The notes beneath the pieces were generated by a model. That model was not told the DNA's origin and did no database searches. It was given only the letters and a program-made list of their open reading frames with translations. A DNA stretch of 21,908 bases from Candidatus Heimdallarchaeota archaeon (GTDB lineage Archaea > Asgardarchaeota > Heimdallarchaeia > JABLTI01). The stretch is taken from positions 1 through 21,908 of the forward strand of contig DXJV01000010.1 of NCBI GenBank assembly GCA_019056785.1. The letters are read 5' to 3'. This document shows positions 6,141 to 21,908 of this stretch, one piece after another (positions within the stretch are counted from its first letter, which is position 1; the number at the start of each line of letters is the position of its first letter). The position numbers and the translations under genes were made by a program.

Positions 6141-9140
6141 GTGAGAGAAACGGATGGCGAGCATCATCAGGAGATCCCAAAAGCCATGAGTAAAAAAAAG
6201 GAGCTACTCTTCCTATTGACTGATCTCTCCTATGAGATTCCGGAAGAGAAGGACCTTCCAATCATTTATCTTTATGGCAGGAGGAAGGAAGGGGAAGTCC
6301 TTGTCAAGGTTCATGGATTTGCACCTTACTTTTATGTTAAAAAAACTCCTGAACTTCCTTTTATCCTTCAAAATGATCCGAAAATTAGTCAATGGCAAAG
6401 AGCTACTGAAGAGCGAACCCTTCGTCAGTATTTTTGGGGCGGAACACCCATCCGGCTTGTAAAAGTTCTAGGAACAAATCCTCGGAAAGTTCGAGAGATT
6501 AGCCGTACATTCGAAAAACTTGGCATAAAAACCTTTGAAACAGACATTCCTTTTTTGAAACGTTTTCTTATTGATAATGACATTAAATGTCTAAATGTTA
6601 TTAAGGTCCGAAGCTCGCAGCTGAGAACCGCCGGAAGAAGAATCTACCTCGAGGTAGGGTATCAAGACGTTTCGCGTGTTTCCGAGGAGGAACTCCCTCG
6701 AGCAACCGATTTTTACCCTTTAAGATTACTGAGTCTAAACATCAAAATTGCTCGCGAAAACGAGAGTTTTGAAGAACTTATGCAGAAAAAGGACAAACCC
6801 ATTCTTGCAATTACCACCATTCTTGGCACAAGCACCAAACCGGCTAAAGCAAAAGTTTTCTTCTTAGAAGACTACTCTCCTGAAGGCGAAAGGAAAATGA
6901 TTCAAAAGTTTCTTGCATTTCTTCAGGAGGTGCAACCCGACATTCTCTGTACCTTTCATGGGGATAACTTTGACCTTCCGTATCTTCTTCACCGCATGAA
7001 ACTCTTGCAAGTGCCAAGCCATGCTTTTTCTTTATTCAATGACGAACCTTGTTACTATTCAAAGAGCTTGCATTCTTTTCGAATGATGGGGCGGATGGTC
7101 TTTGATCTTGCCCTGCGCACTTGGGGCATTCATCCTCCCTCTGGGAAGAAGGGGCTCTACGATATTGCGGAAGTGCTATTGGGGAGAGGAGCCCCAGCAA
7201 CAGTAAGAACGAACCATTCAAACTATTACAAACAAACGCCAACGTTTGAAGAAGTGAACGCTGCGAGAGATTTTTTACACCTATGGCGGCAAGGGTTCTG
7301 CGAAAGAAGAAAAGAGCAGATTAAAGCACTTGCTACCCGTTGTCTTTATGATGCAAAGCTAATTTATGACCTCTTCTGGGAACTGGGAATGTCAGGTTGG
7401 ATTGAAACCTTGCGCGTGACAGGTTTCCCACCTGCAGAAGGAAATAGCTGCACGGAACGGCTGAATGGCGAGTTTGAATTGATGCGGTACATGCGCCGGA
7501 AGGGGATCATCATCCCAAAGCGGCCGGATGCCGACCAAGTAGAAAAGAATCGCCTCATTCGTCAGCAATATCCCCATGAAGGGGGAACCGTTTTGTATCC
7601 GAAAGGGACACTTCATATTGGCGTGCTTATCGCCGACTTTCAATCAATGTACCCCTCAGTGATGATTGCCCAAAATATCGGTGGCGAAACAATCAAACAA
7701 TGGGTTGAGGGGAGTGATTATGGCGACCCTAAGAAACTTTTTGAGCAGCAGTCACGTTCTTGTCTAGCGATCATGGAAAAGGCTCTCATTAAAAAACGAA
7801 TGGCAAAGAAGAAACAGATAAATCAATTGCAAGAGCAGCTAAAACAAACGACAGATGCTGTCGCACGAAGGACACTCGAAGAAAAGATTGCAATTCTCCA
7901 ACGAGAACAAAATTCAATGAAAATAGTTGCAAATAGCATGTATGGGGCCCACTTCTACATTCGAAGCCGCTTCTACACTCAAACTTTGGCTGCAGCCATT
8001 GCCAATAGCGCGCGCGATTATCTTTTAGGAATTGAAAAACAGCTCGAAATACTCAGCAAGAAGCTGGTGCCATGCGAGCTCATTTACGGTGACACAGACA
8101 GTGCATTTATTAAAATTCATGCAGAAGAGCTCTTTACAAAAATACACGCGGAACGAGACGCTCCCCGGCGAGAACAACTAATTGCAAAACTAATGCTCCT
8201 CGTAAATGCCCTTTTAAAAGCAATTAATGATAATTTGCCTTCTCCTGTCCAATTGAAATTTGAGGATGTAGCTTACCGCATCATTTTCAAACCCGAGCGC
8301 AAAAAAGCATACAGCTACTCGAGTCTCCTTTCAAACGAATTCGTAATTAAAGGCTTTGAAGCGGTCCGCTCTGATTGGTCGCCTCTTGCTCGGCAGGCGC
8401 AACGAAAGGTGCTTGAAATACTATTAAATTACCCGAAAGCTACTGCAGAAACAACTTTAACCGAATTCCAACTTGCAAAACGATTTCTTATTGCATTGGG
8501 TGTGAAAGTCCTTCAAATGCCCTCGGAACTGCTTCTCCCAAAAGTTGTCATCCTTTCACCGATTCGACAACCACCAGAAAACTATAAAGGGAAAACACCG
8601 GCTGTCGTGGCCTTCAGCCATTTTGCTCAAATGGAAGGAGTAGATGTATCAAAAGCATGGATGGATTATGACAAGTTTCCATGGGTTATCGTTGCCGGAA
8701 AGGGAAGCATCTATGAACGTGCGAGACACCCGAAATTTGCCGAGGAAATCGATCGCGAACATTATGTCAAGGAAATGCTTCGTTGTTGCGAAGGGCTTGG
8801 TGTCAAAGTTTCTTTAGCAGAAGTAAAAGGCGCCCTTCCCACAGGTCGATTGCCCCATGCCTTTGAGCGTGCACGAGACAAGGGATTGCTCTTGCCCGCA
8901 GAAGAAAAAAGTCCTCTCTCTATAGAGCCCATCAAAACCGGAGAATTAGAGTGGCAAAGGAAAAGCAAAAAGCCAAAACAACGCAGTGTTAGAAGAAAAC
9001 CAGCTGGGCAGTTGGCATTAACACAATTTTCTCACTTGCCAACAAAAGAGGAGGAAAAAGGAAGAACGAAGAACAAGAACCAGACCGAGCCAGAGCAAGG
9101 TGAGGGAAAACTCGTTCCCCAAAAACTCATTGTAAAATAG
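6141..9140 (+). CDS. polB: Family B DNA polymerase (archaeal PolB3-like layout) with degenerate 3'-5' exonuclease
   Basis: Polymerase motifs A ADFQSMYPS, B KIVANSMYG, C YGDTDS, and KGFEAVRSDW. Archaeal N-terminal domain (GFAPYFY, FETDIPFLKRFLID). ExoI reads LSLNIKI instead of aFDIET; ExoII TFHGDNFDLPYL; ExoIII RCLYDA. Start may be ATG 6186. Confidence 0.95.
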   Translation: MRETDGEHHQEIPKAMSKKKELLFLLTDLSYEIPEEKDLPIIYLYGRRKEGEVLVKVHGFAPYFYVKKTPELPFILQNDPKISQWQRATEERTLRQYFWGGTPIRLVKVLGTNPRKVREISRTFEKLGIKTFETDIPFLKRFLIDNDIKCLNVIKVRSSQLRTAGRRIYLEVGYQDVSRVSEEELPRATDFYPLRLLSLNIKIARENESFEELMQKKDKPILAITTILGTSTKPAKAKVFFLEDYSPEGERKMIQKFLAFLQEVQPDILCTFHGDNFDLPYLLHRMKLLQVPSHAFSLFNDEPCYYSKSLHSFRMMGRMVFDLALRTWGIHPPSGKKGLYDIAEVLLGRGAPATVRTNHSNYYKQTPTFEEVNAARDFLHLWRQGFCERRKEQIKALATRCLYDAKLIYDLFWELGMSGWIETLRVTGFPPAEGNSCTERLNGEFELMRYMRRKGIIIPKRPDADQVEKNRLIRQQYPHEGGTVLYPKGTLHIGVLIADFQSMYPSVMIAQNIGGETIKQWVEGSDYGDPKKLFEQQSRSCLAIMEKALIKKRMAKKKQINQLQEQLKQTTDAVARRTLEEKIAILQREQNSMKIVANSMYGAHFYIRSRFYTQTLAAAIANSARDYLLGIEKQLEILSKKLVPCELIYGDTDSAFIKIHAEELFTKIHAERDAPRREQLIAKLMLLVNALLKAINDNLPSPVQLKFEDVAYRIIFKPERKKAYSYSSLLSNEFVIKGFEAVRSDWSPLARQAQRKVLEILLNYPKATAETTLTEFQLAKRFLIALGVKVLQMPSELLLPKVVILSPIRQPPENYKGKTPAVVAFSHFAQMEGVDVSKAWMDYDKFPWVIVAGKGSIYERARHPKFAEEIDREHYVKEMLRCCEGLGVKVSLAEVKGALPTGRLPHAFERARDKGLLLPAEEKSPLSIEPIKTGELEWQRKSKKPKQRSVRRKPAGQLALTQFSHLPTKEEEKGRTKNKNQTEPEQGEGKLVPQKLIVK

Positions 9141-14555: not shown

Positions 14556-15005
14556 TTAGAAACGAATTTCCAAAGTTAATTTATTATTCTTTTGAGATAC
14601 CTCTTTTGAAAATAATCCCCCTCCTTCTTTGGACGGAAAATTAGAGCTTCGTGTTAGGAGGTCAATTTCAGTAATTAGCTCCTCTTTGGAGATCGGTTTC
14701 ATTTTTAATTTAATTCCAATTTTTGAGGTTTGTAATTTATCCACCCGAGGATCACCTGTTATCATGAGAATTTTTAGGCGAGGATTGCGTTTAATAAACT
14801 CTTTACTTAAATCCAAACCATTTAATTCCGCCGGTAAGCGATAGTCAACTATGATGATCTCGGGTTTCTCTTCCGCTTGATCAAAAAGCTTCAAAGCATC
14901 TTTGCCATTTATGGCTTTTAGGACTTTATAACCTCGTTCCGTTAAAATGCGCTTAAATAACTCATTAGTGAGCAAATCATCTTCTACGAGTAGAATGGTC
15001 TTCAT
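14556..15005 (-). CDS. Stand-alone response regulator receiver (CheY-like)
   Basis: ILLVEDD acidic pocket, phospho-acceptor in IIVDYRLP, NGLDL, MITG, KP; no output domain. Confidence 0.92.
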   Translation of the reverse strand: MKTILLVEDDLLTNELFKRILTERGYKVLKAINGKDALKLFDQAEEKPEIIIVDYRLPAELNGLDLSKEFIKRNPRLKILMITGDPRVDKLQTSKIGIKLKMKPISKEELITEIDLLTRSSNFPSKEGGGLFSKEVSQKNNKLTLEIRF

Positions 15006-15384: not shown

Positions 15385-15537
15385 TTACCAAAGTCCAGTA
15401 TCTTCTGTGTCGCCACCGTCGGGACCTGCAGTGGTCTCGCCCAGACCATTCTTGATTGCTAAAGTAGCTCCTCCAGCAATTAAAACACTCAAAATAGCAA
15501 TAACTATTTTACTTATTTTAGGGTTTAACTTTTTCAT
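15385..15537 (-). CDS. Small (50 aa) putative secreted pro-peptide
   Basis: Below the ORF-track cutoff. MKKLNPKISKIVIAILSVLIAGGATLAIKNGLGETTAGPDGGDTEDTGLW*. GAGGTTGA SD just upstream of the ATG; signal-peptide n/h regions; own terminator; paralogue at 21771. Confidence 0.8.
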   Translation of the reverse strand: MKKLNPKISKIVIAILSVLIAGGATLAIKNGLGETTAGPDGGDTEDTGLW

Positions 15538-15820: not shown

Positions 15821-17599
15821 GTGAAGTCCCTCATGAAAGAACGATTAACGACATTGATAAACAAAGTAGAAGTACTCCTACCAGACGACCGTAACCAAAT
15901 CTGCAAAATTTTAAATGCTGCTTTAAAGGATGTAATAGTATTTCTTTCCAAAACTATTGGTTACAAGCCGATTTTAGAACAACGACAGATCGTCCTCGCA
16001 CCATTAATCGAGGGATATGATGTTAATGTTGGGATAAAGTTCAGAGAACAAACTATAGAATTTGCCGAATGGATCTTTAATTTGCAACCTCGGCCAAAAG
16101 TGAATTTACTTTACTTTTTAATCGTAAAGTTAGCATTCCACCATTTTCTGCCGGAACAGCCAAATGAGGTTAAAGATGCATTTGTCAATATTGTAGCATT
16201 ATTGTGGTTGAAGGAACATTTTGGTATCAATTCACTCGATAACCCAATTTATGCATCAGTTACTACGAGAATTTATCCTGAAAGAATTGCAAAGTATTTC
16301 TATGTTCAATTTAATCGATTGTTAAATATCTTATTTATCAAGAATATCCCTTACCACGAAGTTTTTAAAGTTTTAGCAGAAATAGTAAGCCAACAGAACA
16401 TAGACTCGGAAGGAATTTTCAAGGCATTTAATGGCTGGGTAAACAGTTTAATAACTGAAATTGATGTCATTGCACCAATTTATTTAAAACCAAAATTAAT
16501 CCCAACTCTCGAGTTAATCGTAAAATGGGGCTACTCGAGAGGAACCACAGCAAATATTGCTAAAAAACTAAATTATCACATTAATTCTGTCGCACGGCAG
16601 TTTAGGGAATTGTCAACCAGGAACACTGCCTTCTGGAGGCCAATACTTAATCTGGAAAAATTAAAGTTAAATAACTATTTCTTGAAGGTAGTCCTGCCAG
16701 AACGAGGAGAAATGTACGAAAGAATCTATAAAATGCTCTGGGAAGAGCAGTATTTGAAATCCATTTACACCGGAGAGATCGAAGAGGGTAAAAAGGTCAT
16801 CTATTCTCCATCATTAATTTGTCCCCATCTTGTAAGTGAGCGGTTGAATGAACAATTGAGAAAATTTCAGGGTAAAGGATGGATTGACGATTTTAATTTA
16901 CAATTGATACGCGAACGAAATCATTACGGAGTAATCACCACAACAGAACAGAAACCGACCATTGAAACTATGGAGAAATTGTTATTTGAAAAGCAACCGG
17001 CATTTGATTTGCGAAAATTCGTCTTTGCAAGCGAAAAGAGAGATTTCTCAATGGAATTTGATGACCGGGACATTGTTCTAGATTACAACTTACTCTTCTT
17101 CCTCTCAGTACTAAAATGCAAATATTTGTTAAAATCCCGCTACGCAGCATATGTAAATGAGCTCCCAAAACTCTACAAGAAAAATAATATCCCCTTAACG
17201 GATGTAACCGCTCAGATAGTCTTTTTGAACCAGATTGAGATCCGAGCAAGAAGACGGAAAATACTTTCCTATGCACTTTTTATGAAGCGCTTCATTCCAA
17301 ATCGAGCAGACATCTTCATTTTTGAAATAAAGGCACTAGATGAGCAAGAAGAACGAAAAATAAAGCGTTTGGTAAAAGAATTACAAGTTTTCTCTTTCCT
17401 CGGCGAAATGGTCTTAGCAGACAAACATGTTTTTCCCCTCCCCGGGATATCAAGCAATCATCCAATAAAAGACTTAATCCAAAAGAAAATAGAAAAAACA
17501 GGTCTGGAATCAACTTATTATACTATAAGGCAGAGTAATAAAAAACTAGTGCCACTCCATGAACTCTATGATTACGAAAGTCAAAAATGGAAACTCTAA
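15821..17599 (+). CDS. Large putative transcriptional regulator: N-terminal ~210-aa domain, central HTH, Lrp/AsnC-like C-terminal domains
   Basis: HTH-like TTANIAKKLNYHINSVARQFREL followed by the Lrp/AsnC-type linker PILNLEKLKLNNYFLKV and beta-alpha-beta segments; a second similar module near the C-terminus. Start may be ATG 15833. Confidence 0.65.
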   Translation: MKSLMKERLTTLINKVEVLLPDDRNQICKILNAALKDVIVFLSKTIGYKPILEQRQIVLAPLIEGYDVNVGIKFREQTIEFAEWIFNLQPRPKVNLLYFLIVKLAFHHFLPEQPNEVKDAFVNIVALLWLKEHFGINSLDNPIYASVTTRIYPERIAKYFYVQFNRLLNILFIKNIPYHEVFKVLAEIVSQQNIDSEGIFKAFNGWVNSLITEIDVIAPIYLKPKLIPTLELIVKWGYSRGTTANIAKKLNYHINSVARQFRELSTRNTAFWRPILNLEKLKLNNYFLKVVLPERGEMYERIYKMLWEEQYLKSIYTGEIEEGKKVIYSPSLICPHLVSERLNEQLRKFQGKGWIDDFNLQLIRERNHYGVITTTEQKPTIETMEKLLFEKQPAFDLRKFVFASEKRDFSMEFDDRDIVLDYNLLFFLSVLKCKYLLKSRYAAYVNELPKLYKKNNIPLTDVTAQIVFLNQIEIRARRRKILSYALFMKRFIPNRADIFIFEIKALDEQEERKIKRLVKELQVFSFLGEMVLADKHVFPLPGISSNHPIKDLIQKKIEKTGLESTYYTIRQSNKKLVPLHELYDYESQKWKL

Positions 17600-17661: not shown

Positions 17662-18177
17662 TTAGATATAGAATATTATCGAAATAATAATTGCTATAAC
17701 ATATAAAGCAAAAGTTATCCAACCAAGAATAACTGCTGTAGTTCCTGTAGGAGTATCAGCCGCTTTCTGACCAAGCGTAATAGCAAGGATGGAACCAAGA
17801 CATGGTAAAATACCTACACATGAAAGAATCGCAAAGATTAGAGCGAGGGTCCCCTCGGAAGAATTCCTCGGACGAGTATTTGGAATATAAACAACCTTTT
17901 GTGGCGGGGGCATAGGATGTACAGGTTGATAAAAAGTGCCTTGAGCGGCGGGAGACTGTTGTTGAGTTGGCCCATAATAGTCCCGGGAGGAAGCCACCTG
18001 AGAAGAGCTATAGACAGAGACAGGTGAAACCTCATGGGTCTTAGATGGAATACCATCTGAAACTACTGGCTCTGAAAGTGCGTCTAATGAAGCACCACAA
18101 TTCGGGCAAAACTTTCCATCACTTGGAACAGCAAAAGCACAAAAAGGACAAATGTTTCTGAACTCATCTTTGTTCAT
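17662..18177 (-). CDS. Zinc-ribbon + Ser/Pro/Gln-rich linker + two-TM (DUF4190-like) membrane protein
   Basis: CPFC...FCPNCG zinc ribbon; low-complexity linker; ALIFAILS...LAITLG...AVILGWI TM pair. CAGGAG SD precedes ATG 18177, preferred over the ORF-track start at 18342. Confidence 0.85.
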   Translation of the reverse strand: MNKDEFRNICPFCAFAVPSDGKFCPNCGASLDALSEPVVSDGIPSKTHEVSPVSVYSSSQVASSRDYYGPTQQQSPAAQGTFYQPVHPMPPPQKVVYIPNTRPRNSSEGTLALIFAILSCVGILPCLGSILAITLGQKAADTPTGTTAVILGWITFALYVIAIIISIIFYI

Positions 18178-18606
18178 AATTTCTCTCCTGAAAGAAATTT
18201 CATTCCAATTTAAATTAGAAAAAGAAATTAATATACACTTTGATTTAGGAGCATCTACCTTCACTAACTTCACTCGTAAATTAAAAACCGGCCTAAACGA
18301 TCTTTTCAAATCAAAATAGCTCAGTATCTCATTAGATAGCAATCCACAAAACTCACAGATGAGTTAGAAAGAAGCCAGAGAGAAAATAAAAAACAAAAGA
18401 AAAGTGTTCTGAAAAATACCCTGAAAACACGAAAAAAAAGTGTTATTGTAATGCGTAAGAAATACGACGTAAATCGTAAGATGTAAGAAAAAGGGCTTTG
18501 CTGAGAAATACCACAACCGTCGCATTTATATGTAAAAAATAGAAACATAAGAACACAAAATAGTTGAGAGAAACTATGAAAAAAATCCCCGAGGGGAAAA
18601 AAGACA

Positions 18607-19746
18607 ATGTCTGAAGAAATTTTACAAGAAAAAGCCTTAGTAATAGATAACGGAACGGGACTATCGAAAAACGGCTACGCAGGAGAAGACCAACCAAGAA
18701 GCGTCTTCCCAACACTTATTGGTTATCCTAAATACCAATCAATTATGACTGATGTAGAACATTACGTGCGAGAGTACTATATCGGCGAAGAAGCTCTGAA
18801 TCTTCGTGGTGTCCTTCGCTTACTCTACCCCATTGCCCACGGTCAAGTTACTGACTGGGAGGCTATGGAGCGCATCTGGCACTTCACTTTCTACAATGAC
18901 TTACGAGAGAACCCAAATGAACACCCTGTTCTTTTGACTGAAGCTCCATTGAATCCTGAGCACAACCGTGAGAAGATGGCTGAGATCATGTTCGAGACTT
19001 TTGATGTTCCAGCTTTGTATGTTAGCATGCAGGCTGTTCTAAGTCTTTATGCCAGCGGTCGTACCACAGGTTTGGTTGTTGACTCTGGTGATGGTGTTAC
19101 TCACATTGTTCCAATTTACGAAGGTTTTGCTTTGACTCACGCTATTGACCGCATTGATTTAGCCGGTAGAGACATCACCAATTACTTCCGTCGACTCCTT
19201 CGTCAGAAGGGTTATTCATTGACCAGCAGTGCTGAGCTTGAAATCGTTCGTGATATCAAAGAGAAGCTCTGTTATGTTGCATTAGATCCTGAGAAGGAAT
19301 TACAATTAGCTGAAAAAGTCAGCGGTATGGAGAAGACCTATCAGATGCCTGATGGCAATGTTTTGACTATTGGCACTGAGCGTTTCCTTGCTCCTGAAGT
19401 TTTCTTCCAACCTCAACAGATTGGTAAGGAAGCCATGGCTTTGGACGACGCTATTTTCCAGGCTATCAACAAGTGCGATGTTGACCTTCGCCGCGAACTC
19501 TACCAGAACATCGTTTTATCTGGTGGTTCTACCATGTTCAGTGGTCTCAAAGAGCGTCTTCATAAGGAATTGACTGAGCAAGTTCCTGAAGGCATTGAAG
19601 TTAAGATCATCGCTCCTCCCGAGCGACGCTACTCTGTCTGGATTGGTGGCTCCATTCTCTCCAGTTTGAAGACCTTCCAGAAGATGTGGGTTACCAAGAA
19701 AGAATACAAAGATCTTGGTCCCAGCTCTGTTCTTCGATGCTTCTAA
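18607..19746 (+). CDS. Eukaryote-like actin (Asgard actin, Lokiactin-like)
   Basis: [114 protein letters not shown]-terminal RCF; 379 aa, no introns. Confidence 0.98.
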
Positions 19747-20320: not shown

Positions 20321-20758
20321 TTGTGGTGGTATTCATTGTATCTTGCTGTTGATGGTATTCTCTTTCGTGAGGGGGAAGTGCTCCTTATTCGTCGTGCCGG
20401 TCGAACTTTTCATAACTATTGGGCCCTTCCCGGAGGGCGTGTTGAGGAAGGTGAAACTGTAGAAGAAGCATTAATTCGTGAAATCAAAGAAGAGGTGGGT
20501 GTTAATGCAATACCGGCAGCTATCCTTGGGGTTTATTCAAATCCTGAACGGGACCCGCGGGGGCATACAATTTCCATCGTTTTTATTTGCAACTTTTCTG
20601 GTGAACCCTCGGCTGGATCGGATGCTGCTATGTGCCAACTTGTCTCCCTTTCAAAAGCGCTCACACTCCCACTGGCTTTCGACCACCATCAAATCCTAAC
20701 TAATTTCAAACGCTGGCTTACCACCAAGGAAACGTTTTGGTCCACAAAAGTAAAATGA
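20321..20758 (+). CDS. NUDIX hydrolase (ADP-ribose pyrophosphatase-like)
   Basis: Nudix box GGRVEEGETVEEALIREIKEEVG; YSNPERDPRGHTIS; AGSDA; LAFDH. True start may be TTG 20336 (GGTGGT upstream). Confidence 0.93.
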   Translation: MWWYSLYLAVDGILFREGEVLLIRRAGRTFHNYWALPGGRVEEGETVEEALIREIKEEVGVNAIPAAILGVYSNPERDPRGHTISIVFICNFSGEPSAGSDAAMCQLVSLSKALTLPLAFDHHQILTNFKRWLTTKETFWSTKVK

Positions 20759-20819
20759 CTTAATCAATATCCTTTTACCAGAGAGGAGGCCTTATAAAAA
20801 CTATGAAAAAAATTCAGAT

Positions 20820-21317
20820 GTGAAAACTTTGGTTATAACCATTCGTGAACTCGAGGAGAAGGACATTCCTTCCTGCGTTGAAATGACCATAACATCTTTT
20901 CCTTGGACAGCTTACGGTCTGACAGCAGGGCAAGCCACGAAATTTTTCTTAGAACGCCTTTCCAAACAACTCGTTTTCGTTGCGGAAAACGAGGGAGAAG
21001 TAGTCGGCTTTATTGCACTAAAAAAGAATGTCCTCTTTGCAAACTATATTAGAAGGCTTGTTGTAAGTGAAAAGCACCGTAGCTTAGGCATCGGCTCAAA
21101 ATTACTTACATTCGTTGAAGAACTCACTTTAAAGGAAGACCACCTCCCAAACGTTTTCCTTCTCACATCAACTCAAAATTTACGCGCAATTACCTTTTAC
21201 CTCAGGAACAACTATCAAATCATCGGTAAGATAAAAGACTTTGTGGACACTGGCTTAGATGAGTACATTCTTTGGAAATCTTTTGGAACTATTAATGGTC
21301 TTGGAAAGTACCATTAA
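20820..21317 (+). CDS. GNAT family N-acetyltransferase
   Basis: IRELEEKD; VFVAENEGEVVGF; acetyl-CoA motif A VSEKHRSLGIGSKLL; N.RAITFY.RNNY. Confidence 0.92.
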   Translation: MKTLVITIRELEEKDIPSCVEMTITSFPWTAYGLTAGQATKFFLERLSKQLVFVAENEGEVVGFIALKKNVLFANYIRRLVVSEKHRSLGIGSKLLTFVEELTLKEDHLPNVFLLTSTQNLRAITFYLRNNYQIIGKIKDFVDTGLDEYILWKSFGTINGLGKYH

Positions 21318-21322
21318 TAATA

Positions 21323-21502
21323 CTACACCAAGGAACATAATAGTAAAAAGAATGACAATCTAAAAAAAAGGATATTCCCCCTTTTTTCACCGGAGAGCTC
21401 CAAACGGCGAATGTGAAGGGGGACGAAAGTCAGGAGATCGACCCAATAAGAACAAACAGAAGAGGAGAAAAATACCATGAGACCGATTAATAATTCCCTC
21501 AT
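21323..21502 (-). CDS. Possible 59-aa hydrophobic protein
   Basis: AAGGT SD-like sequence 4 nt before ATG 21502; MRELLIGLMVFFSSSVCSYWVDLL...FFRLSFFLLLCSLV*. No recognisable family. Confidence 0.3.
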   Translation of the reverse strand: MRELLIGLMVFFSSSVCSYWVDLLTFVPLHIRRLELSGEKRGNILFFRLSFFLLLCSLV

Positions 21503-21770
21503 TTTTACCTTTTTATTCTTTCAAAAAATTACTTTGATTTTTCTATAAAAAGTCTGCTTTTTCGGTGTTTGATTCTTTTAACTAACCAACATGAGGTTTC
21601 ACTGAATCGTTTAAGAAAATAGGCAGACAACTTTCAACAAGAAAACCCCCGTTCTAAAAAAATTGCACAGAAACTACAGTTTATCATTGTTTTTGTCTCA
21701 GTTTTTGCTCTTTTAATAGCCCATTCTCAAATAATTCATTGATAAACACTTAAAGGAGATCAACAACAAG

Positions 21771-21908
21771 ATGAAGAAAATTTCCCCGAAAATCGTTGCC
21801 CTTGCAATGTTAATACTGTCCTTTGTTGGTGCCAGCGCCTTTGGCATCAAAACCGCAGTCGCAGGCCGAAACTCCGGCGGCTTCGATAACGAATATGGTG
21901 ACGGCTCA
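21771..21908 (+). CDS. Second small putative secreted pro-peptide (runs off the window end)
   Basis: AAGGAGAT SD then MKKISPKIVALAMLILSFVGASAFGIKTAVAGRNSGGFDNEYGDGS..., open to the end. Same MKKxxPKI / hydrophobic core / IK / Gly-Asp tail layout as 15385-15537. Confidence 0.7.
   Translation, partial: MKKISPKIVALAMLILSFVGASAFGIKTAVAGRNSGGFDNEYGDGS

Follow-up and report, generated by a model that had tools for sequence, protein, structure and literature searches.

A micro-peptide gene family and its regulator-like partner in Heimdall-group Asgard archaea: candidate peptide-signalling cassettes

Does the short reading frame that runs off the end of an Asgard archaeal contig encode a genuine peptide, and what might such a peptide do? 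The DNA analysed here, called the window, is the complete contig C5 (G000:C5; 21,908 nt) of a Heimdall-group Asgard archaeon, whose assembly totals 2.87 Mb in 102 contigs and is 82.5% complete. An earlier note on this DNA had described two micro-peptides with a common leader and a variable, acidic and Gly-rich tail, likened them to pheromone or RiPP precursors, and suggested that a cognate regulator or maturase may lie just beyond the window.

A 48-codon gene at the end of the window

The ORF at the window end is a genuine gene of 48 codons, with coding-like substitutions. Its ATG lies at 21771, downstream of a GGAG at 21755-21758, and the frame stays open up to the window's final base, encoding MKKISPKIVALAMLILSFVGASAFGIKTAVAGRNSGGFDNEYGDGS. 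A GGAG or GGTG site is found 7-10 nt upstream of the start in every homologue. The features of this gene, which belongs to the subtype that we call type B, are as follows.

21771..21908 (+): type-B micro-peptide gene, codons 1-46 of 48; product MKKISPKIVALAMLILSFVGASAFG followed by IKTAVAGRNSGGFDNEYGDGS...
21771..21845 (+): leader, residues 1-25, with n-region MKKISPK, 12-residue hydrophobic core IVALAMLILSFV, and c-region GASAFG, then IK
21846..21908 (+): tail, residues 26-46 of 48; acidic, Gly-rich, variable and fast-evolving
21658..21770 (+): upstream region, ~89% shared with the copy at 6.4 kb of contig C10
21711-21718 (+): TATA-like box TTTTAATA, a putative promoter element
21739-21745 (+): TTGATAA motif upstream of the gene

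The stop codon is absent from the window because the assembly breaks there, the window being a whole contig. Contigs C66 and C76 both start within the type-B gene and read ...GDGSGG-TAA, which yields a product of 48 aa. Positions 106-114 of C76 hold the two final codons (GG) and the TAA stop, so the stop lies 2 codons past the window end. On both contigs, the TAA is followed by a GGGGGATAAACCCCC hairpin and then by a T-run. Rfam searches detected no RNA family at the type-B locus or at its two 3' continuations. In a comparison with the closest relative, the leader sequence has three synonymous and no non-synonymous changes. An open-ended antisense frame of 64 aa (21713..21907, - strand) has no supporting homologues and was taken as fortuitous.

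The assembly broke at the window end because the type-B gene is repeated and its identical copies were collapsed. The last ~150 nt of the window recur at further places in the same assembly.

C10:1-157 (-): repeat copy, 97% identity to the window, with an identical CDS
C66:1-141 (+): repeat copy, 100% identity to the window, with a 3' continuation
C76:1-105 (+): repeat copy, 100% identity to the window, with a 3' continuation
C10:6399-6642 (-): third type-B copy (gene 6389-6535), 89% identity to the window

As there are two 5' flanks (C5 and the start of C10) and two 3' flanks (C66 and C76), the genome must contain two identical copies. The third copy, at ~6.4 kb of C10, has a conserved 115-nt upstream region of its own. 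It lacks 1 nt in a CCCC run at codon 5, which reflects either a true frameshift making it a pseudogene or an assembly error. Its leader otherwise differs by two synonymous changes and one non-synonymous change, and its tail is a variant ending in ...GGWEDEYGDGNLG. A truncated product of this copy starting at an internal Met (P0010) is on record from two contigs.

Which of the two 3' flanks continues the window was established by synteny. The closest relative, GCA_021498085.1, is listed as the Heimdallarchaeota MAG AC18 (PMC10833476) and is 95% identical. Its 402-kb contig L050 is colinear with the window and extends beyond the window end. The gene order of L050 is response regulator, 50-aa peptide, 588-aa gene, actin, 97-aa gene, NUDIX, GNAT, 48-aa peptide (+), 580-aa gene (-), HSP20 and GTPase, and it is identical in the JGI contig L051. 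In blastn comparisons, the tail of C5 matches L050 1-10138 and the head of C76 matches L050 10034-19064, at 95%. C66 shares with L050 just the 194-nt repeat. By this colinearity the end of C5 joins C76, and the window, as judged by synteny, continues into that contig. Being repeated, these genes of 45-50 codons break assemblies, and the partner of a contig-end gene can be recovered by synteny.

The peptide family and its partner gene

The features of the window and of C76 to which the following analyses refer are listed below.

15385..15537 (-): family member 1 (type A, 50 aa, tail ...DTEDTGLW), matched by the type-B ORF in BLASTP
14556..15005 (-): response-regulator receiver-domain gene, downstream of member 1
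15821..17599 (+): c0_A, 592 aa, divergent partner of member 1 and in-window homologue of c0_B
17662..18342 (-): 226-aa protein; zinc ribbon at the N-terminus (DZR, E 4e-5), then a linker rich in Pro and Gln, and a hydrophobic stretch at the C-terminus
18607..19746 (+): full-length actin homologue, 379 aa (PF00022, E 3.7e-133)
C76:154-1893 (-): c0_B, ~580 aa, convergent with the type-B gene and 43 nt past its stop

The actin protein is 100% identical in the window and in the relative. The presence of this actin gene and the identity of the closest relative place the host in the Heimdall group of Asgard archaea. The gene for the 226-aa DZR protein sits between c0_A and actin, and the version of the relative was called shorter (171 aa). 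Receiver-domain genes of the same kind as that in the window recur downstream of type-A and type-C peptides in related genomes.

The two micro-peptides of the window, whose likeness the earlier note had pointed out, are indeed related, with 15/41 identities in BLASTP (37%, E 8e-6). An HMM built from 11 homologues of other genomes, with none from this genome or from the type-B subtype, retrieved the window ORF with an E value of 5e-4 among 83,201 six-frame genome segments, with noise starting at E 0.5. A third distinct family member is encoded on contig C98. The genome thus harbours three distinct peptide types plus two extra type-B copies, and so several variants are present, as had been proposed. 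A leader-only HMM run over the genome matched the family loci alone and no long ORF. The frame thus does not open into a long secreted protein, the outcome against which the pheromone or RiPP proposal had been set, and ends at 48 aa.

We surveyed 41 related genomes. The peptide family is present in 11/11 genomes of taxonomic family f1, at 2-7 loci each, with frames of 43-50 aa. In the 29 other genomes of the class, the search returned a single weak match, to the signal peptide of a 681-aa protein. A profile of 29 sequences searched against 1.84 billion representative proteins retrieved 55 clusters at E ≤ 1e-3, all of 35-93 aa and with the alignment always ending at the C-terminus. Pfam searches with the peptides gave no match, and in a look-alike search of the ESM Atlas the top score, 0.78, was in the chance range. 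The peptide genes, of 45-50 codons, are unannotated.

Among 81 distinct members, the consensus is M(K/R)K-(I/L/V)-(N/S)-P-(K/R), then ~13 hydrophobic residues, G-(G/S/A)-(L/F/I)-(A/G/S), and (I/V/A)-(K/Q/R). Small residues are found at positions -3/-1 in ~68 of them. Together with the positively charged n-region and a hydrophobic core within the 7-15 residues typical of such signals, this agrees with the characteristics of Sec-type (class I) signals. In its n/h/c layout the leader resembles a Sec signal peptide, and it would serve export. A type-I signal peptidase site is predicted between G25 and I26, and cleavage there would release a 23-residue product. Nevertheless, the MKK(I/L)(N/S)PK motif is near-invariant across paralogues, a degree of conservation beyond the ordinary needs of a Sec n-region that export leaves unexplained and that counts against this reading. 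The hydrophobic stretch and the GG segment together span 18-20 residues, and an uncleaved membrane anchor is thus possible as well.

Other types of targeting signals were considered by eye and rejected. For a class III (prepilin-type) signal peptide, there is no Gly or Ala at -1 directly after the charged n-region; for a lipobox, there is no Cys; and for a C-terminal sorting signal of the PGF-CTERM type, the hydrophobic segment is at the wrong, N-terminal, end.

Across the family, a common leader is followed by a variable, acidic and Gly-rich tail, as the two window peptides had suggested. The tails of the 81 members have 16-22 residues, with 25% Gly, 18% Asp+Glu and a mean net charge of -2.8. 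They end with G-rich sequences (GGG, PxGG, NPGNGGE) or with D-(D/E)-T-G-hydrophobic. Cys is found in two of the 81 tails, and there is no fixed modifiable residue.

We then clustered the ORFs of at least 90 aa around 31 peptide loci. One cluster, c0 (576-600 aa), adjoins the peptide gene at 22 of the 31; the two genes are divergent (~300 nt apart), convergent (27-55 nt) or in tandem (~108 nt). Like the peptides, c0 occurs throughout family f1 (11/11 genomes), and in the rest of the class, 29 genomes, the search gave nothing but one partial HTH/RAM match. The present genome has exactly three c0 genes (15821-17599, C98 and C76), each next to a different peptide type. The other recurrent neighbours are the receiver-domain protein and unrelated genes; the clustering revealed no recurrent modifying-enzyme family. 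Of the regulator or maturase suggested to lie beyond the window, a regulator-like gene is there, c0_B on C76, and a maturase is not supported by these neighbourhoods. We looked upstream of the peptide genes for an operator common to them and saw only A/T-rich weak palindromes and the TTGATAA motif, too little for a site.

Some c0 loci depart from the simple pair. In two genomes, one c0 gene lies between two peptide genes with slightly different tails (L042, G004:C408, 5858-8018; L047, G005:C69, 5885-8042), one peptide being encoded in tandem upstream and the other convergently downstream of c0. In-frame TAG or TAA stops are found in the c0 copies G002:C288:2427-4181, G006:C106:7980-9737 and G003:C192:9734-11338, which may represent decaying cassettes. 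The stop-bearing c0 genes of G002 and G006 are still flanked by peptide genes on either side.

Two of the three copies of the type-B peptide gene in this genome have no adjacent c0, which counts against the signalling reading favoured below. The second identical copy (start of C10 plus C66) has no c0 partner and is divergent from the ribosomal L1/L10(P0) operon, and the frameshifted copy lies between uL16 and OapC. Both partner-less copies (C10:1-2100 and C10:6700-7300) thus adjoin ribosomal protein genes. A tie of peptide expression to growth-related promoters is pure speculation. A related genome, G009, has three identical or near-identical copies of its type-B peptide, one of which adjoins c0. 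The positions of the orphan copies are not syntenic between the two genomes. They are therefore not conserved extra loci, and type-B amplification recurs. That copies within one genome stay identical points to recent duplication or gene conversion.

Pfam searches assigned c0 to no family above threshold. Weak matches to HTH_5, HTH_11 and Mga were found, and a marginal one to LrpA, the best PDB profile match (E 0.0024), at residues 232-327. The AlphaFold2 model of full-length c0_A was confident (pLDDT 88, pTM 0.77). Structural comparison of its residues 224-592 returned NirDL, in which two Lrp/AsnC-type HTH+RAM modules are fused (Z 15.1 over 272 aligned residues), along with many Lrp/AsnC regulators (Z 6.6-6.9; Foldseek probability ~1.0). 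At the fold level, the layout of a winged HTH followed by a RAM domain (beta-alpha-beta-beta-alpha-beta) is thus predicted in c0 twice in tandem.

The N-terminal region of c0_A (residues 14-211) matches the catalytic domains of M1/M4 zincins over ~170 residues (Z 6.8-7.6). The N-domain of c0_B, 18% identical to that of c0_A, was folded alone (pLDDT 87.8, pTM 0.86) and compared with 48,161 chains without Foldseek. About 40 of the top 50 matches were zincins, over residues 2-213 and with Z up to 7.5. They include DPP III, thermolysin, LasB, LTA4H and other M1 enzymes, oligoendopeptidase F, neprilysin/PepO, ACE, BepA and selecase. As Z scores of 5-7.6 fall in the grey zone of the tool itself, what carries the argument is that two paralogues give consistent lists of matches. 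None of 19 c0 sequences has an HExxH or HxxEH motif, and their N-domains contain one to five His residues each, none of them conserved. On these models, the best reading of c0 is a dead zincin-like domain, whose groove could plausibly bind peptides, joined to a single-chain Lrp/AsnC-like unit for DNA and ligand binding. Its N-terminus is hydrophilic, and the protein should therefore be cytoplasmic.

We also considered whether c0 could be a receptor of the TPR type, as in the RRNPP systems. This was rejected, as the folds matched by the confident models are those of NirDL, Lrp/AsnC and zincins, and Pfam showed no recurrent TPR family, with one stray match to TPR_CAND1 (E 0.018) in one of the 19 sequences.

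A candidate signalling cassette and the alternatives

If the peptide and c0 work together, their variation might be linked. In an ML tree of 20 c0 proteins, two deep clades are supported at 100/100. Clade 1 corresponds to convergent cassettes with type-B tails, and clade 2 to cassettes in divergent or tandem arrangement, whose tails are of types A and C. Mapping the tail class on this tree requires five changes, the minimum, compared with a mean of 11.7 after shuffling, and 0/200 shuffles gave as low a number. Such congruence could be expected from physical linkage alone. Between paralogues, c0 varies most in its N-domain (26% vs 34-35% identity).

We compared substitution rates between this genome and its 95%-identical relative, which represents a single comparison.

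actin, HSP20, GTPase and the type-A c0 (c0_A): dS 0.03-0.12
NUDIX and GNAT genes: dS 0.28-0.44
type-B peptide gene, whole: dS 0.23, dN 0.057
c0_B, whole: dS 0.55, dN 0.052
c0_B N-domain: dN 0.071
c0_B C-part: dN 0.041
type-B peptide tail: dN 0.125, the highest of the region, with changes clustered at residues 38-42
type-B peptide leader: dN 0

The block of NUDIX, GNAT, peptide and c0_B genes (20321..21908 plus C76:1-1900, compared with L050:8487-11925) is therefore a local hot-spot of divergence, flanked by actin, HSP20 and GTPase genes with dS values of 0.03-0.07. This suggests an allele-like replacement by recombination. In this one comparison, the hot-spot fits the pattern expected for a co-evolving ligand-receptor locus.

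Judging from these sequence features, the pair is a credible candidate for gene-encoded peptide signalling in archaea. The reading that we favour, with a probability of about 0.5, is that a Sec-type propeptide is sensed by its cognate regulator, c0, and that each genome has three such cassettes. The type-B peptide and c0_B would then constitute one of three paralogous two-gene cassettes. The pre-peptide would be exported and cut between G25 and I26, and the freed tail, or a C-terminal fragment thereof, would be re-imported with the help of Opp-type binding proteins. The genome encodes at least nine of these (SBP_bac_5, above the Pfam cut-off), which is permissive for re-import. The tail would then bind the N-domain of the cognate c0 and thereby alter transcription, and the differences between tails would give each cassette its own specificity. 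We infer this chain of export, cleavage, re-import, binding and regulation from the architecture of the peptides and their gene linkage, which make a pheromone plausible.

A bolder version can be formulated, to which we would commit only tentatively, the odds being somewhat against it. The cassettes would represent the first known gene-encoded peptide cell-to-cell signalling of archaea, in a lineage, Heimdall, that is near the origin of eukaryotes. They would be pherotype-like, with exported 20-residue peptides, a new class of receptors made of a dead zincin and a single-chain Lrp/AsnC pair, alleles that diverge between close strains, and extra peptide copies that boost or re-wire the signal.

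The rival that survives best, which we nevertheless consider rather unlikely, is that the peptide remains uncleaved as a single-pass membrane micro-protein, with its N-terminus in and its acidic tail out. It would act with c0 at the membrane and produce no diffusible signal. For instance, it might tether or modulate c0 through its cytoplasmic MKKxNPK end, or be a small sensor subunit. The 18-20-residue hydrophobic segment, GG included, would be long enough, and the near-invariance of the N-terminal heptapeptide would be in keeping with a single conserved contact in the cytoplasm. Domains of the M1 zincin type recognise peptides by their free N-terminus, and the match of the c0 N-domain to this fold would suit such a contact too. 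However, just ~7 residues would be cytoplasmic, and no part of c0 diverges more than its N-domain while the N-terminal motif of the peptide is invariant, the opposite of what this hypothesis predicts. Furthermore, the -3/-1 rule and the helix-breaking GG are as in cleaved signal peptides, and it is the tail that diverges together with c0.

Distinctly less probable is that c0 is merely a local regulator of the peptide gene, and that the exported peptide has a separate extracellular job, such as surface cation binding, competition or antimicrobial action, or adhesion, with no feedback on c0. Regulators often adjoin their targets in divergent or convergent pairs, the low-complexity, acidic and Gly-rich tails would suit metal binding, and the extra, partner-less copies also fit. 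Nevertheless, this would leave unexplained the peptidase-like domain of c0, the presence of a dedicated c0 paralogue for each peptide type, and the joint divergence of tail and c0 N-domain between close strains. As for an antimicrobial job, anionic, Gly-rich 20-mers are unlike known antimicrobial peptides.

The suggestion of the earlier note that the family might be RiPP precursors, with a conserved leader bound by a maturase and a variable core to be modified, has very little left in its favour. The layout of conserved leader and variable tail is that of RiPPs, and the winged-helix parts of c0, with their weak HTH matches, might resemble RiPP recognition elements. However, no modifying-enzyme family recurs nearby, c0 has no catalytic motif and its predicted folds are those of Lrp/AsnC and NirDL, the tails are almost always Cys-free with no fixed residue to modify, and the hydrophobic, Sec-like leader is unlike the cytoplasmic leaders of RiPPs. 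Practically negligible, finally, is the notion that the window-end ORF is fortuitous, or is the generic signal peptide at the start of a longer secreted protein that the contig end truncates: the frame does leave the contig at its end and the antisense frame is likewise open over the peptide gene, but the stop comes 2 codons on in two independent contigs and in relatives, the 55 homologous clusters are micro-proteins throughout, the substitutions are coding-like, the ribosome-binding site is conserved and no long ORF carries the leader.

Comparison with known systems

Archaeal cell-cell signalling has been attributed to small molecules. In the literature that we searched, no archaeal gene-encoded peptide signal was reported, and gene-encoded peptide signalling with cytoplasmic receptors was described only in Bacillota and their mobile elements. 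If the reading that c0 senses an exported propeptide is true, it would mean an independent invention of the logic of peptide signalling, with an unrelated receptor and a peptidase fold reused as a sensor. It would also open the closest prokaryotic relatives of eukaryotes to studies of their social or density-dependent behaviour.

The peptides resemble small bacterial membrane proteins and type I toxin peptides in that they have fewer than 50 aa, harbour one hydrophobic helix, occur in multiple copies and are missed by annotation. They differ from them by having a protein partner rather than an antisense RNA, and by their acidic tail, their signal peptidase-like junction and their strict linkage with a regulator-like gene.

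The modelled N-domains of two c0 paralogues show a grey-zone match to zincins over ~170-190 residues. These include M1/LTA4H, M4 thermolysin/LasB, M49 DPP III, M3, M13 and inactive relatives. In contrast with the enzymes, the c0 N-domain lacks HExxH (0/19) and evident conserved metal ligands, its Z scores are modest, and it is fused to predicted DNA-binding modules. We found no description of a fusion between zincin-like and DNA-binding domains in the literature searched, with searches that were aimed at other questions. The remainder of c0, residues 224-592, resembles Lrp/AsnC (FFRP) proteins and the tandem NirDL/AhbAB proteins (PDB 4ch7, 4czc, 1i1g, 2cyy and 8q90) in its two predicted HTH+RAM modules, here in one chain. 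Nevertheless, c0 is ~4x the size of Lrp, has an extra N-terminal domain of ~215 residues, and shows marginal sequence similarity, below the Pfam threshold.

The closest parallels are the RRNPP(A) systems, which are quorum-sensing cassettes of Bacillota, their phages and plasmids (PMC10075063, PMC9765709). In Rap-Phr, NprR-NprX, PlcR-PapR, Rgg-SHP and AimR-AimP, a gene for a propeptide of 40-50 aa likewise lies beside that of a cytoplasmic receptor or regulator (PMC10075063, PMC9765709). The propeptide similarly starts with a signal sequence and ends in a short, variable part, several paralogous cassettes with different peptides are present per genome, and Opp-type importers are available. However, c0 is not homologous to the RRNPP(A) receptors and shows no TPR fold; a dead zincin-like domain and tandem Lrp/AsnC-like HTH+RAM modules are predicted instead. 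Further differences are the Asgard archaeal host and the acidic, Gly-rich composition of the tails, and the system is known here from sequences and models. Based on these predicted folds and on the adjacency of the two genes, the cassette is an analogue of the RRNPP systems rather than a member of the family.
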